47,472 nt of DNA from the IMG/VR virus record IMGVR_UViG_2698536559_000020. One strand, given 5' to 3'. The DNA comes from a virus. Taxonomy: Duplodnaviria; Heunggongvirae; Uroviricota; Caudoviricetes. The position numbers and the translations under genes are program-made. Shown here piece by piece: positions 14,674 through 47,472 of this stretch. Each line of letters begins with the position of its first letter. Position 1 is the first letter of the stretch. The notes beneath the pieces are model-generated. The model was not told the DNA's origin, ran no database searches, and saw nothing but the letters and a program-made list of their open reading frames with translations.

Positions 14674-14749
14674 GGCCCTTTAGCTCAGTGGTCAGAGCGA
14701 GCGACTCATAATCGCCAGGTCGCTGGTTCAAGTCCAGCAAGGGCCACCA
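14674..14749 (+). tRNA. tRNA with CAU anticodon, ileX-like (tRNA-Ile2 lysidine type, or tRNA-Met)
   Basis: cloverleaf deduced by hand; anticodon loop CTCATAA; close to E. coli ileX sequence; CCA encoded. Confidence 0.75.
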
Positions 14750-14750
14750 G

Positions 14751-14827
14751 CCGTCACTAGCTCATCGGGACAGAGCATCAACCTTCTAAGTTGATTGTGC
14801 GGGGTTCAAGTCCCCGGTGACGGTCCA
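14751..14827 (+). tRNA. tRNA-Arg (UCU)
   Basis: perfect 7 bp acceptor stem CCGTCAC/GTGACGG, anticodon loop CTTCTAA, T-loop TTCAAGT, CCA encoded. Confidence 0.7.
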
Positions 14828-14829
14828 GT

Positions 14830-14905
<76 letters not shown>

Positions 14906-14908
14906 TAT

Positions 14909-14983
<75 letters not shown>

Positions 14984-27379: not shown

Positions 27380-28236
27380 ATCAACTTGCACTGTTAAGCC
27401 AGCGCCTGCTGAACACGCCGCTGGCCCTTCATCCGCGAAAAGCGGAAATCATTGTTACGGCACTGGCAGAACGACTCGGGATCACCCGGATAAAAACGGG
27501 GGCCTGGTATGACGATGATGAAGACGATTTCTGCCGTCCCGCCCGTGAAAGCGGGTACGACATTCTGGAGGGGATCGCCGTTATTCCCGTGCACGGCACC
27601 CTGGTACAGAAACTGGGGATGCTGCGGCCTTACTCCGGCATGACGGGGTATGACGGCATCCGGCGAAATTTTCTGACGGCGCTTAACGACCCTGATGTGA
27701 AGGGCATCTGTCTTGATATCGATTCCCCCGGCGGAGAAGTGGCCGGGTGTTTTGATCTGGTGGACACGATTTTTGCCTGTCGCGGGCAGAAACCGGTGCA
27801 CGCCATTCTCTCGGAGTCGGCGTACTCGGCGGCCTATGCCCTTGCCAGCGCCGCCGACCGGATCCTGGTCCCCCGCACGGGTGGCGTGGGGTCCGTTGGT
27901 GTCATCTATGTGCACTGTGACATGTCGCGCCAGATGAAGGATGAAGGGCTGAACGTGACCATCATCACCTGTGGCAGCCGGAAGGCGGAGACCAGTCCGC
28001 TGCGTCCGCTGAGTGAGGCGGCACAGGCAGCACTTCAGGCGGACATTGACGCCGCAGGTACGCTTTTTATCGAAACCGTTGCCCGCAACCGTGGCATCAG
28101 CGCGGATGCGGTGCGTGCACTTGAGGCCCGGACGTTACGGGCTGACGAAGGGGTGCAGGCAGGTCTTGCCGACGATGTGATGTCACCGGATGAGGCCTTT
28201 TCTTTTCTGTTAAAGGAGACAGCAAACAATGCGTAA
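27376..28236 (+). CDS. head maturation protease (lambda gpC / S49 family)
   Basis: …LRPYSGMTGYDGI…DIDSPGGEVAG… matches lambda C. Confidence 0.8.
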   Translation: MNQLALLSQRLLNTPLALHPRKAEIIVTALAERLGITRIKTGAWYDDDEDDFCRPARESGYDILEGIAVIPVHGTLVQKLGMLRPYSGMTGYDGIRRNFLTALNDPDVKGICLDIDSPGGEVAGCFDLVDTIFACRGQKPVHAILSESAYSAAYALASAADRILVPRTGGVGSVGVIYVHCDMSRQMKDEGLNVTIITCGSRKAETSPLRPLSEAAQAALQADIDAAGTLFIETVARNRGISADAVRALEARTLRADEGVQAGLADDVMSPDEAFSFLLKETANNA

Positions 28237-43601: not shown

Positions 43602-44141
43602 ATGGTGAACATTAAAAATTTCACGACATACACCCCGGAAAACCCGCCCGTGGCGTGGGGCAGATATCTCATCAGCGAGGACGGTCAGGACTGGTATGAA
43701 TGTCAGACGCAGTTTGCAGAGGATACATACAAAGTTGCGTATGACAGTGACGGTATTGTGCGCAGTATTTCGGGCGATGTGTCGGCACTTTGTCCTGTCA
43801 ACATGAGTGTTGCTGAGGTTGAGTCGCTGCCGGACGGAGCGGATATTGACGGCAACTGGGTGTTTGACGGGGAGAGTGTTGTGGCGCGCACACTGACAGC
43901 AGAGGAGTGGCAGGCAAATGCGGAATCGCAACGAAGCGCGCTGATATCGGATGCGAAGGCGACAATCAGTCTCTGGCAGTCGGAGCTTCTGCTGGGCACC
44001 ATCAGTGATGATGACAAAGAGAGCCTGACAGAATGGATCGCTTACATAAAGGCGCTTCAGGCGCTGGATTTAAGTGATGTGACGGATGAGGAGAGTTACA
44101 ACTCGACAGTCTGGCCGGATGAACCGGGAGCCACAGCATAA
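43602..44141 (+). CDS. tail fibre assembly protein (Tfa)
   Basis: size, position and C-terminal …WIAYIKALQALDLS… motif. Confidence 0.65.
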   Translation: MVNIKNFTTYTPENPPVAWGRYLISEDGQDWYECQTQFAEDTYKVAYDSDGIVRSISGDVSALCPVNMSVAEVESLPDGADIDGNWVFDGESVVARTLTAEEWQANAESQRSALISDAKATISLWQSELLLGTISDDDKESLTEWIAYIKALQALDLSDVTDEESYNSTVWPDEPGATA

Positions 44142-44143
44142 AA

Positions 44144-44166
44144 ACCGCTGAGAAGCGGTTTTTTTG
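44144..44166 (+). terminator. rho-independent terminator ending the late operon
   Basis: ACCGCT-GAGA-AGCGGT followed by T7. Confidence 0.65.
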
Positions 44167-44543
44167 TGCCTGAAAAACGGAAGGCACGGCTACTGCAATA
44201 AAAAAAAGCCCCAGCCATGGTGAGTCGGGGGGGCTGAAAAGTCCTATGCCCAAATGGATGTATATAAAGCATCTAAATTCTAATAAGTCAGGGTGAATAC
44301 TGGAATAGTTTAATGACAGTATTGCTGAAAATCTAAATAATTGTACCGAAAAATGATTTTTTAGCCGTCTCTTACACGATTGGAAATTTCATTGACTTCA
44401 CTGCTCTCACCAGACATGGCGAAATTTCTCACATGCGAATGAATGATTCTCGGATGTGTGTGGAAGATATTTGGTGGGCGTTTTTCAGGGACAACACGCG
44501 CCTGAAAAACCAAAGTTCCGGTGACTGTAACGTTGTATCAATA

Positions 44544-44569
44544 AGAAAAGCCGGCATGGTTGATGCCGG
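44544..44569 (-). terminator. candidate terminator for the reverse-strand hydrolase gene
   Basis: CCGGCAT…ATGCCGG hairpin with U-rich tail on the minus strand. Confidence 0.4.
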
Positions 44570-44654
44570 TTATATCAAGACGTGATATATAAGTGGGATG
44601 AAAGAGTTTCCGGAAGCAGAATCTAACGAAAAAACATATTTGAATCAAATATGT

Positions 44655-45443
44655 TCAGATATGTTGTGATTTGGTTTTGTGTAACCAGTTTTTTATAGCG
44701 ATATTTACCTCATTTGGGTGAGTTATGTTTAATGCATGATGAGCACCAGATATGATTTTAAGTTCAGAATACCCGAGCATTTTGTGCATACTCGTCGCTC
44801 TTTCCGGTGGTATTCCTGTATCGCTGGAACCATGAAGAATCAGAGTGGGTGTTCTGATGGTGTGAACTTTATCTGAAATGTCGTCGCGCTCCAGCATTGC
44901 ATGCATGGCAACCCTGATGTTTTCAGGTTTATGGCGCAACCATGTTTGTTTCCATTTCGCTGCTTCAGAGGCATTATTTCCGAAAAAAACGGGTAATAAT
45001 GACGATATTATCTCTTCCTTTATGACTGGGTCTTGCCATCCATTACACAGCTCCATATAACTGGACGCAATCTCTGGTGGATCCTGCTCTGCCTGGGTTG
45101 CCATAAGGATTAGTCCGAATAAACGTTCTGGATGCGACAGCGCAAATCGTAATGATATATATCCGCCCATCGACATTCCCCCTAAAACGAACTTATCCAT
45201 TTGTAGTGAATCTGCAACGCCTAGAATATCATCAACGATATCATAGAGCGAGAAAGCTTCTGTTTCTTTAGTATTTTTATCAAACCCCCTGACATTAATA
45301 CAAACAACTCTGTGTTTTTCTTTTAGCTCGTCAAGCTGATATTTAAACATTTCATTATTCATGAAAAATCCATGAACGAATATGACGGGGGGATTGTTTT
45401 TATTTGTTTCAGTGTATCCAGAATCAGTAAACGTAAAATTCAT
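44655..45443 (-). CDS. alpha/beta-fold hydrolase (esterase/lipase-like), low-GC cargo gene
   Basis: …VIFVHGF… then nucleophile elbow GGMSMGG (GxSxG), C-terminal His; GGAG SD. Confidence 0.7.
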   Translation of the reverse strand: MNFTFTDSGYTETNKNNPPVIFVHGFFMNNEMFKYQLDELKEKHRVVCINVRGFDKNTKETEAFSLYDIVDDILGVADSLQMDKFVLGGMSMGGYISLRFALSHPERLFGLILMATQAEQDPPEIASSYMELCNGWQDPVIKEEIISSLLPVFFGNNASEAAKWKQTWLRHKPENIRVAMHAMLERDDISDKVHTIRTPTLILHGSSDTGIPPERATSMHKMLGYSELKIISGAHHALNITHPNEVNIAIKNWLHKTKSQHI

Positions 45444-46112
45444 GATTACTCCATTATTTAGACGGTTATGTTGTATATTTCGCTAATGATAGCGGAGAGT
45501 TAAAGTGTGCTGCTGAACAGAAATCTACCTGTCAAAACCCTTCTGACGTTTATCTACCAAGATGGAGATAATATTGTCAAGTATTCGTTAGGATACAAAA
45601 GTATCGGTTTAATAGTAAAATCTAAGAAGTATTCGTGCGACTGTATGCCTCATTGATTTTTCCTTTCTCGCAAGACATAGCTAATTCTCGGCACGTTGAT
45701 GAGCTATTTTCATATATTGTGCAGTAAGCGTTTTTCTCGGAGGTGCTGGCAAGAACAATACATCCTAGTTTTTTCTGATTAGTGCCGCTTATGCATCGAT
45801 GATAAGGGATATTTGTTCTGTGAGCCTGGCGGGAATGGTGTCGCCAGCATCATTGGCTTCTACCCAGTAAAAAGAGGCGAGGAAACATGCACGACAGGTG
45901 CTACACGTCATGCATAGATTGGGATTACTCATAACTAGCCACAGCTATAGGTCGTTAAGAGATTCGCAGCACGCTGTATGCAATAACGTGCTGCGGCTGG
46001 CTGGTGAACTTTCGATAGTGCGAGTATTGAATGATTTCCAGCCGTTACCGATTTTACGTGTTTATTATTGAACAAACCACTCGTCAGCAGACTCCCAGGT
46101 ATCTTTCAGAGT

Positions 46113-46313
46113 CTACTGAACAAATGTTTTTGCAGAATCCTTATCTGCGGTGCGTGTAACAGAAAGCTCATCATTGCTGGTGGCTTTTACGATCACTTCT
46201 ACATCGTCATAACGCTTACTGATGCGCCGAGTTAATTCTTCCTTTAACGCATCCACAGCACTGTTTGGCATTTTAGTCATTTTCTCTTTGGCTATGCAGA
46301 TATCAATACGCAT
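46113..46313 (-). CDS. DinI-family (DinI/MsgA-like) SOS-regulated protein
   Basis: MRIDICIAK…[13 protein letters not shown]… aligns with DinI; GGAGGG SD; LexA boxes upstream. Confidence 0.75.
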
Positions 46314-46328
46314 AAAAATCCCTCCACG

Positions 46329-46372
46329 CTGTGTTTATATACAGTGTTATTTTTAACTGTGTAAATAAACAG
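46329..46372. promoter_or_regulatory. two LexA (SOS) boxes: CTGTGTTTATATACAG (46329-46344) and CTGTGTAAATAAACAG (46357-46372)
   Basis: both fit CTGT-N8-ACAG with AT-rich core; 16-60 nt upstream of dinI-like start, overlapping its putative -35/-10. Confidence 0.65.
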
Positions 46373-46374
46373 TA

Positions 46375-47472
46375 TCAAGAGGTCTTGTTTCTGCTCCTTT
46401 GGAGTTCTTCAAAACGATTATGTAAAGATTTCGGATACAGTTCGGTATATACCTGCCATAGCACGTTTAATGAACGATGCCCTGTAACCTGAGCGACTTC
46501 CTCAATACTAAAACCAGCCTCAAATAAGCGACTTGCCCCTTCCCTACGCAAATCATGGTATCGCAGATCTTTAATACCTAATTTGCTTCTTACCCTCTGA
46601 AATCCTGCGGTAACAGAAGTGCTGTTATATGGAAAAATGAATTCTGATTTTTGGGGTTGTTGCTGGACGATATCCCAGGCTTCCCCAAGCAAGGCAACTT
46701 TCATATGGTTGCCTTCCTTTTTACGTGGATCTTTCCTATCTCTTACTAGTATAGATTTTTGTTCCTGGTCGAGATCTTCCCATCGTAACCGGCATACTTC
46801 TCCAATTCGCATACAGGACCACACAGAAAATTTGAGGATATCAACGAACGGAATTTTTGAGCATTTATGAGTAGATCGTTGTTGAAGGCCTTCAATGAGC
46901 ATGTCCAGTTCATCAGATGCTGGTCTACGATTACGACGGTTTGATTTACCAATCAAACCGAGTTTAAGTAGATATGGACGAGCGCTTTTCGCCGGGTTTG
47001 ATGTGTAATTGATTCCGTATACAGGTTTTGCCGCATCCAGAACACTGCCAAGATAACTAACATCGTGGCTGACTGTTGCTGGGCCTGCACCAGCGTTGTT
47101 TCTTAGTCTGCAATGTTCAATTACGTCATTTTCTGTCAGTTCAGATAGTTTGATCGCGGAGATGTCGCTATCCATAAGTAGTTCCAGCACATATCTTTTA
47201 GTACGGCCTGCTTTACCTCCGGCATTTGGGTCATTTAAATATTTGTGTAGTAAGTCACGGACTGTAAGTCCGTCAACAGCATTTGATGATGGAATGCCAT
47301 ATAGATCTAATTCCATCACTTTCTGTGCGCCCCATGTTTTGGCATGAGCATGTTTAGGGAATGTTTTGCTTTCCCTGTAAGTGATAACACCTTTTTCTTT
47401 GATAATCACATTACAGCGATAGCGTGGTGTGCCATCGGATTTTAGTCGTTTCTCTATGTTATAGTACGCCAT
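46375..47472 (-). CDS. int: tyrosine integrase (phage integrase family)
   Basis: C-terminal catalytic residues (…HDLRREGASRL… HxxR; …GHRSLNVLWQVY… Tyr); start codon is the last three bases of the window. Confidence 0.85.
   Translation of the reverse strand: MAYYNIEKRLKSDGTPRYRCNVIIKEKGVITYRESKTFPKHAHAKTWGAQKVMELDLYGIPSSNAVDGLTVRDLLHKYLNDPNAGGKAGRTKRYVLELLMDSDISAIKLSELTENDVIEHCRLRNNAGAGPATVSHDVSYLGSVLDAAKPVYGINYTSNPAKSARPYLLKLGLIGKSNRRNRRPASDELDMLIEGLQQRSTHKCSKIPFVDILKFSVWSCMRIGEVCRLRWEDLDQEQKSILVRDRKDPRKKEGNHMKVALLGEAWDIVQQQPQKSEFIFPYNSTSVTAGFQRVRSKLGIKDLRYHDLRREGASRLFEAGFSIEEVAQVTGHRSLNVLWQVYTELYPKSLHNRFEELQRSRNKTS

Follow-up and report, generated by a model that had tools for sequence, protein, structure and literature searches.

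The segment between the tail-fibre genes and the integrase of the virus sequence examined here is probably an ordinary cargo zone, located at the right end of a temperate Escherichia coli phage that resides in the 5' end of dusA. It holds a rare, intact esterase gene, a decayed ykgJ, an SOS-type dinI and a terminator-like element. The whole stretch of DNA that was analyzed, referred to as the window, is 47,472 nucleotides long (IMG/VR record IMGVR_UViG_2698536559_000020; Caudoviricetes). The window DNA matches the chromosome of E. coli 377323_2f at 100% identity, and among 5426 complete E. coli genomes only 3 have the whole segment from 44142 to 46374.

From 44199 through 47472 every feature runs on the minus strand, against the direction of the tail genes. 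The term moron is used here as by Hendrix and Juhala, for a self-contained cargo gene that a phage genome carries. The minus-strand order, established from the sequence and by comparison with relatives, is the integrase, a predicted LexA-repressed promoter with two SOS boxes, dinI cut to 66 amino acids (aa), a conserved element of about 93 nucleotides (nt), a ykgJ pseudogene, an esterase moron and a 3' scrap of ykgJ. The features are as follows.

44140-44168, plus strand: intrinsic terminator of the late/tail-fibre operon, a stem-loop followed by U7, adjoining the stop codon of the tail-fibre-assembly gene tfa (44141)
44199-44235, minus strand: terminator-like hairpin AGCCCC...GGGGCU plus U8, identified by folding, at the outer end of the minus-strand cargo block
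44370-44438, minus strand: another remnant of ykgJ, from its 3' part (YkgJ residues 79-101), located downstream of the hydrolase gene (tblastn E 6e-6)
44541-44569, minus strand: predicted intrinsic terminator of the hydrolase gene, CCGGCAU-loop-AUGCCGG then CUUUUCUUAUU, about 85 nt past the stop codon (terminator scan and folding)
44655-45443, minus strand: cargo (moron) gene for a cytoplasmic alpha/beta-fold serine hydrolase of 262 aa with the triad S91-D208-H236
45551-45580, minus strand: putative promoter-like block of the hydrolase gene, TTGACA (45580-45575), 18-nt spacer, TAGATA (45556-45551)
45637-45932, minus strand: full-length, frameshifted ykgJ pseudogene (tblastn against K-12 YkgJ, E 2e-22 and 2e-18)
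45965-46057, minus strand: conserved element of about 93 nt located 3' of dinI, whose 5' stem GGCUGG/CCAGCC encloses a loop that hardly varies, followed by the hairpin flagged in the preliminary description
46065-46313, minus strand: dinI-like gene of 82 codons in which codon 67 has changed from GAG/GAA to TAG (46113-46115), leaving a 66-aa product (46113-46313)
46329-46378, minus strand: SOS promoter predicted by promoter scan, -35 TTGATA (46378-46373), 18-nt spacer, -10 AAAAAT (46354-46349)
46375-47472, minus strand: dusA-specific type of tyrosine integrase, whose start codon forms the final triplet of the window, 88 bp short of dusA

The preliminary description, made from the sequence alone, had noted a turn to AT-rich DNA past a late-operon terminator, and both observations were reproduced. 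GC content falls from 0.54–0.62 in the late and tail genes to 0.33–0.47 from 44150 onward, and the terminator directly after the tfa stop codon folds at -12.9 kcal/mol (z -3.95), a value equaled by none of 200 shuffles. The hairpin at 44199-44235 folds at -12.2 kcal/mol with a weak z of -1.9, and its U8 is read directly in the sequence. The low-GC island does not end at 46112, where its boundary had been drawn, because a GC content of 0.39–0.44 extends through dinI, the two LexA boxes and the integrase up to 47472.

The 670 bp or so from 45444 to 46112 had been described as non-coding and without an open reading frame (ORF) of 60 aa or more. The ORF list agrees that no such frame overlaps this stretch. 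It is not intergenic, however, and contains instead the last 48 nt of the original dinI frame, the conserved element, the frameshifted ykgJ and the promoter-like block of the hydrolase gene. A tRNA or tmRNA relic was looked for in the same stretch and none was found.

The alpha/beta hydrolase gene

The minus-strand alpha/beta hydrolase with a GxSxG motif recognized in the preliminary description is an intact 262-aa ORF. The protein matches Pfam PF00561 (Abhydrolase_1) at 87.4 bits against a cut-off of 25.8 (E 1.5e-24), carries the nucleophile elbow G89-M-S91-M-G93, and is also matched by the esterase/lipase family PHROG 789. Across 28 homologs, down to 27% identity, the elbow with S91, D208, H236 and the oxyanion motif H24-G25 show no variation or almost none. 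The AlphaFold2 (AF2) model has a mean predicted local distance difference test score (pLDDT) of 93.4, and in Foldseek the best dozen esterase, lactonase and hydrolase matches gave template modeling (TM) scores of 0.79–0.90. The best of these structures was a short-chain esterase from Thermogutta, then a feruloyl esterase, Est816, which degrades acyl-homoserine lactones (AHLs), RutD, aryl esterases and enol-lactonases.

The Thermogutta terrifontis enzyme, the short-chain carboxylesterase TtEst (PDB 4UHC/4UHD), was the top match both in sequence (E 8.8e-35; 245 aligned residues, about 31% identical) and in fold (TM 0.87–0.90, root-mean-square deviation 2.0 A). The two proteins share the GxSMGG elbow and the positions of the Asp and His, and H24-G25 also aligns with TtEst. 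However, TtEst is a chromosomal enzyme of a thermophilic planctomycete, whereas the E. coli hydrolase is prophage cargo, and because identity is only about 31% the substrate range of TtEst is not transferable. The hydrolase has no signal peptide and its first beta strand begins at residue 5, so action on surface substrates is unlikely. The earlier suggestion of an esterase acting on host or surface substrates is thereby narrowed: the intact serine hydrolase and its esterase-like fold (TM 0.90) agree with the enzyme class, and the surface part is disfavored.

The gene is rare: 30 of the 5426 complete E. coli genomes have it. Each of the eight contexts inspected places it at a prophage end, on the strand opposite to the tail genes and within a few kb of a host junction, and it stands directly past a tail-fibre or tail-fibre-assembly gene or a remnant of one; the exception is GF60, where insertion sequences occupy that position and only the host junction adjoins. 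The host junctions near the copies include zinT, prfC, ybhB/bioA, ompW, the icd region, potB and dusA. Among seven alleles dN/dS was 0.14–0.23 (about 0.18), which indicates that the gene is maintained by selection. The close homologs (69–82% identity) are E. coli prophage alleles; the next two, at 52% and 46%, are found in other mobile islets, and the remainder are at or below 37%. An attempt to read function from the contexts of the distant homologs was uninformative, as these are heterogeneous (a metabolic islet, a virulence-plasmid-like islet). In the latter, the 46%-identical homolog lies beside genes for an SdiA-regulated-domain protein, DsbA, a bundlin-like pilin and EAL-domain proteins.

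The gene is missing from the related dusA prophages PMV-1 and A24, and its GC content of 0.39–0.44 compares with 0.55–0.62 in the tail genes. This presence/absence pattern and deviant composition point to a self-contained moron, or cargo gene. A literature search for prophage alpha/beta hydrolase morons found nothing, and neither the hydrolase nor dinI nor the integrase gave a PADLOC hit. The putative moron has candidate signals of its own. A GGAG ribosome-binding site lies 6 nt ahead of the ATG, and the terminator predicted downstream folds at -11.1 kcal/mol (z -2.6). Within the roughly 190 bp upstream, the block AATACTTGACAA..ATCTCCATCTTGGTAGATAAAC is kept in all seven alleles examined, two of which have unrelated DNA farther upstream. 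The idea that the supposedly non-coding stretch might hold a promoter is supported to this extent, the block being a putative promoter of the hydrolase gene.

dinI, the ykgJ remnants and the dusA integration site

The dinI-like product has a DinI domain (PF06183, 43 bits against a cut-off of 24.2; PHROG 189, E 2.9e-20). Three close relatives have GAG/GAA at codon 67 and read ...TFVQETLKDTWESADEWFV. In the window the frame past the TAG continues TLKDTWESADEWFVQ to 46065, which places its last 48 nt (46065-46112) inside the stretch flagged as non-coding. The TAG strips these residues, the acidic C-terminal helix, from the product. This helix contacts RecA in DinI (Voloshin 2001, as cited in PMC3121763). 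The exact 66-aa product was found on 747 contigs, including E. marmotae, and the truncated allele is therefore widespread rather than a one-off lesion.

Two LexA boxes of the form CTGT-N8-ACAG are predicted within 44 bp upstream of dinI, at 46357-46372 (16/20 of the consensus) between the -35 and -10 hexamers, and at 46329-46344 (15/20) just past the -10. The window as a whole contains three such boxes, as compared to 0.56 expected. The third (28207-28222, plus strand) is in the late region, has a middle that is not AT-rich, and probably matches by chance. VT1-Sakai has an annotated SOS box and promoter at the homologous site.

The H0001/H0002 end module of VT1-Sakai shows the same order as the window, namely a LexA-box promoter, dinI, the conserved element and a ykgJ-like gene, with 83–86% DNA identity to window positions 45820-46378. 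Unlike that module, the window has a nonsense codon in dinI, a frameshifted ykgJ and an added esterase moron. The window module is also adjacent to the integrase, whereas the lambdoid module of the VT1-Sakai type is at the integrase-distal prophage end. A second point of comparison is the dinI-antirepressor-irsA operon of Gifsy-type Salmonella prophages (PMC3121763), in which, as in the window, dinI comes first behind a LexA box and outside the immunity region; the layout of the window's dinI promoter is the same as that of Gifsy-2 dinI. The Gifsy operon, however, carries the antirepressor GftA and IrsA, and tblastn searches of the whole window with Gifsy-2 STM1020.1n and STM1020 gave no hit. 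An antirepressor or IrsA between dinI and ykgJ was rejected on these grounds, IrsA not being YkgJ-like. Since the window has no GftA or IrsA homolog, a Gifsy-type prophage induction switch is not encoded here.

Upstream of the hydrolase gene, YkgJ residues 1-42 align to 45932-45807 (within a 47-aa ORF at 45789-45932) and residues 43-99 match 45807-45637 in a different frame, placing the frameshift near codon 43 (near 45807). No intact frame of about 109 aa characteristic of the YkgJ family exists here, and the Cys clusters are damaged (CCAFF to CRACF, ACC to AYC). The pseudogene is 79% identical in DNA to K-12 ykgJ with its upstream region and 92% identical to the A24 prophage locus, where a 109-aa ykgJ is intact; the PGAP annotation names the ykgJ stub "ferredoxin" in relatives. 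The second remnant, downstream of the hydrolase gene, matches chromosomal ykgJ in about 1090 genomes over 61 bp at about 84% identity and A24 ykgJ at 76%. A target-site duplication flanking the esterase gene was considered and rejected, as the two ykgJ remnants are not alike. The presence of this unrelated scrap suggests that the cassette came by recombination between ykgJ-bearing prophage ends rather than by clean insertion.

The integrase adjoins dusA. The exact integrase protein occurs on 736 contigs, and this integrase type, dinI and the element occur together in 523 of the 5426 complete E. coli genomes. Both prophage ends carry an imperfect repeat of 17 bp, ATTGC(T/C)CC(T/G)ATGCTTGA, with a match at 15 of 17 positions. 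One copy is in the dusA 5' end about 175 bp to the right of the window end and the other is about 880 bp to the left of the window start. The repeat is coding sequence for IAPMLD, a conserved stretch at the DusA N-terminus, and the junction at the attachment (att) site should lie at ATTGCYCCKATGCTTGA. The phage provides a replacement dusA 5' end, the native one remains at the far junction, and the host neighbor on that side is zur in 377323_2f. The same arrangement has been described for dusA-specific integrases, which use imperfect direct repeats in dusA and whose elements supply a new dusA 5' end (PMC4482086). The window prophage shares with these DAI prophages and islands the integrase beside the dusA 5' end, the imperfect repeats and the new dusA 5' end; no difference from them was found (PMC4482086), making it an ordinary member.

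The conserved element and competing explanations

The hairpin noticed in the preliminary description as a 9-bp stem at about 45966-45994 is present, one base away from that position, as CGCAGCACG/CGTGCTGCG at 45965-45973 and 45987-45995. Its folding energy is -18.6 kcal/mol (z -3.4), which 1 of 200 shuffles matched. Several hairpins had been listed in this stretch, and only this one is conserved in relatives. Together with a 5' stem enclosing the core loop AAAUCAUUCAAUACUCGCACUAUCGAAAGUUCA, it makes up the conserved unit of about 93 nt.

Covariation was assessed in an alignment of 73 distinct copies of the element. In the terminal stem, 6 of 10 pairs have changed on both sides and 92% of cells are paired; controls slid along the alignment pair at 21–56%, and none of 500 shuffles reached the covariation score. 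RNAalifold recovers the same two stems. In most classes the stem leads into a T-run on the dinI strand (GGTTTTTCTTTTT, GGCTTTTTAC and similar), and nothing U-rich follows it on the opposite strand in the window or in relatives. The hairpin is therefore best read as an intrinsic terminator oriented with dinI and the integrase, and the family combines a GC-rich stem that shows compensatory change with a U-run. The window copy has kept a stem of 9–11 bp and has lost the outer pairs and the T-run (...CUGCGAAUCUCUUAACG). A 46-aa ORF at 45935-46075 on the minus strand and a 57-aa plus-strand ORF named "capsid protein" by PGAP, both overlying the element, were provisionally treated as non-coding given the covarying stem. 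In RefSeq/PGAP a plus-strand "capsid protein" of 46 aa is listed at 45930-46070, and a "nucleocapsid protein" in relatives; the name looks spurious and may derive from viral records containing lambda-vector sequence.

A scan with a 27-nt core pattern detected the element on at least 120 IMG/VR contigs. Among species-representative genomes it is confined to Escherichia and Shigella, suspect contigs aside. The exact core also appeared in Streptomyces, Enterococcus, Pseudomonas, Shewanella and other assemblies; most of these contigs are short or of low coverage, and several hits of about 48.4 kb in non-Escherichia assemblies are most likely phage lambda contamination. Roughly half of 128 copies lie directly past a dinI stop codon and the remainder lie behind other DNA; the flanks downstream fall into more than 20 classes. 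The copies without dinI share a sharp 5' edge at (G)TAAAATC. The element stands alone in the lambda b region between ea31 and ea47, and further copies lie directly past the sib site in HK97, upstream of K-12 ykgJ, and in HK633, where the depositors labeled it attP.

It is conceivable, though on balance unlikely, that the element is the gene of a small regulatory RNA (sRNA) beyond its role as a terminator, with the nearly invariant loop as seed. The precedent is DinR, an Hfq-binding sRNA that RNase E cleaves off the 3' end of Klebsiella pneumoniae dinI mRNA, a LexA-controlled transcript, and that represses ftsZ (PMC10907235). DinR and the element are each a conserved stretch running from a dinI stop codon to a Rho-independent terminator under LexA control (PMC10907235). 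The 5' stem-loop, the GC-rich covarying terminator and the U-run would suit an sRNA, as would the survival of the element on its own and the common 5' edge of copies that have no preceding dinI. However, DinR is chromosomal and Klebsiella-specific, and the likeness noted is one of layout. Pairing with ftsZ (-80 to +40), taken as a target by analogy with DinR, was no better than with shuffled targets, 17% of which equaled it, and ftsZ was rejected. A promoter at the TAAAAT of the 5' edge was likewise rejected, as the six or more upstream contexts compared share no conserved -35. No Rfam family matches the core, the core sequence was not found in a literature search, and the window copy lacks the U-tail required by an Hfq sRNA. 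The argument that the core is better conserved than dinI was dropped because this was not seen within the dinI-linked lineage, where the core is conserved no better than the dinI coding sequence (CDS); its conservation there thus needs no function beyond termination. An extended version of the sRNA proposal is slightly less likely again. Under it, the element would be a very widespread phage-borne sRNA of Escherichia and Shigella, made from SOS-induced dinI transcripts or alone (lambda b region, HK97) and acting in trans on host or phage mRNAs via its loop, and in the window, with its damaged terminator, the SOS promoter would be coupled to the esterase instead.

Two further explanations concern the same region. 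The hairpin might be the 3' end of CssrB, an antisense sRNA of Shigella flexneri, read on the plus strand of the window. In a cmscan search RF02799 matched 45890-45995 on that strand (E 0.013) with the 3' hairpin aligned almost perfectly, and a northern blot showed cssrB as a band of about 180 nt, lying antisense to the genes on either side (PMC3071730). Common to CssrB and the element are the terminal hairpin and the type of locus. However, the score of 26.8 bits is far below the gathering threshold of 76, 57 of 101 internal model positions are missing, and CssrB lies on the strand opposite to the element and does not include the conserved core. Its part beyond the hairpin overlies DNA that varies between copies, its 3' end was predicted and not mapped (PMC3071730), and on the plus strand no U-run follows the stem here or in relatives, all T-runs being on the other strand. 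We consider this explanation improbable. Least probable by far is that the flagged stretch holds the phage attachment site, one of the possibilities raised from the sequence. The HK633 GenBank record labels the element "attP ... similar to non-coding region between ykgJ and yagV", and the element is near the integrase in the inspected phages that have one nearby (HK97, HK633 and the window). The dusA-5' repeats nevertheless flank this prophage beyond the window, placing the att site outside it and not within 45444-46112. In HK97, an annotated lambda-type att core lies 187 bp from the element, and the similarity to K-12 is accounted for by a prophage-end relic at that locus.

This K-12 ykgJ locus (NC_000913.3 302000-306000, 1612-2376) contains a 3' remnant of the lambda tfa gene (Rfam IS009), ykgJ, the element and a 3' fragment of dinI in the same order as the window, and looks like a relic of a prophage right end. 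The sRNA EcsR2 has been reported from the yagU-ykgJ intergenic region that also holds the tfa remnant (PMC4350180).

Assembly and meaning of the cargo zone

The related dusA prophages place the window in a series. PMV-1 has a tail gene, dinI (82 aa) and the integrase gene, and A24 has a tail gene, intact ykgJ, dinI and the integrase gene. As compared to both, the window has an added esterase gene, a frameshifted ykgJ and a truncated dinI. Judged from these three layouts, the cargo zone appears to have been built stepwise, from dinI/int, to ykgJ/dinI/int, to the version with the esterase. Homology to other prophages breaks at 44685, in the 3' end of the hydrolase gene, and at 45965, at the hairpin. 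Other hydrolase alleles diverge in their last ~10 codons and downstream (from 44685), and prophages of the PMV-1 type share the DNA from the hairpin through the integrase gene and nothing past the hairpin. Both positions look like recombination joints.

In the cargo-zone reading, the esterase moron would be a unit consisting of the conserved promoter-like block, the ribosome-binding site, the 262-aa enzyme and its own terminator. In a lysogen, the esterase would be made from this putative weak promoter and would hydrolyze a small cytoplasmic ester or lactone. Upon DNA damage, LexA would leave the dinI promoter. Because the window terminator has lost its T-run and outer pairs, some SOS transcripts may read through the pseudogene into the esterase gene.

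Several points weigh against this account. Read-through of the damaged terminator is conjecture, and the conservation of the element core does not exceed that of the dinI CDS, as given above. The -10 of the hydrolase promoter-like block, TAGATA, lacks the usual final T, and the block was not called by a consensus promoter scan. The hydrolase gene is split into two CDSs in E24377A (inspected) and in DS26-1 (by listing), and it is thus dispensable. Pseudogenization in relatives had been named in advance as an outcome that would speak against the proposed role; it is confined to this minority of two records, and the region as a whole is conserved. The more specific family models also fall far short of their cut-offs. 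PcaD (TIGR02427) scored 101.3 bits against 255.85, and the neighbors are a pseudogene and tail genes with no pca neighborhood. Among the other NCBIfam models, BioH scored 87.9 against 206.95, RutD 77.7 against 238.5 and MenH 72 against 208.55, and the EstT/EstX macrolide esterase models reached 35–64 bits as compared to cut-offs of 420–600.

These scores also bear on a competing view of the enzyme, in which it is not a general short-chain esterase and instead has a specific adaptive role, as an AHL lactonase in quorum quenching or as a macrolide esterase. Est816 and the enol-lactonases among the structure matches, the partial EstT/EstX matches, and the SdiA-regulated-domain gene adjoining the 46%-identical homolog would fit such a role. 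However, these hits are all weak and generic for the fold, the contexts of the homologs vary, and PADLOC returned no hit for the hydrolase, making an adaptive role of this kind unlikely. The general esterase remains the preferred assignment within the cargo-zone reading.

Elsewhere in the prophage, composition is also uneven. The late region (18000-44141; head, tail and baseplate genes, the latter Mu-like and of the Gp48 family) has 54–62% GC; typical E. coli GC is roughly 50%, well below this. The early region has 42–53%, and the phage is therefore a mosaic in composition. No relative with more than 1% coverage of the late region was found in a collection of 50,697 phage records. Inside the prophage, at 14674-14983 on the plus strand, four tRNA genes are clustered (Met-CAT, Arg-TCT, Thr-TGT and Gly-TCC). 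At the extreme left end of the prophage, just inside attL and left of window base 1, is a Panacea-domain gene (L005 6263-6835). Panacea domains are linked to toxin-antitoxin systems.

For annotation, these results mean that this prophage family has its att site in dusA and that an apparently empty 670 bp consists of the tail of dinI, a terminator element and a ykgJ pseudogene. The esterase gene is a rare accessory gene under purifying selection, with no link to virulence or defence. The three related dusA prophages form a clean stepwise series of cargo accretion behind tail genes. The conserved element described here 3' of prophage dinI occurs in most E. coli genomes and also in phage lambda, its setting resembles the one behind Klebsiella DinR, and it is the only feature of the region deserving of experiment.

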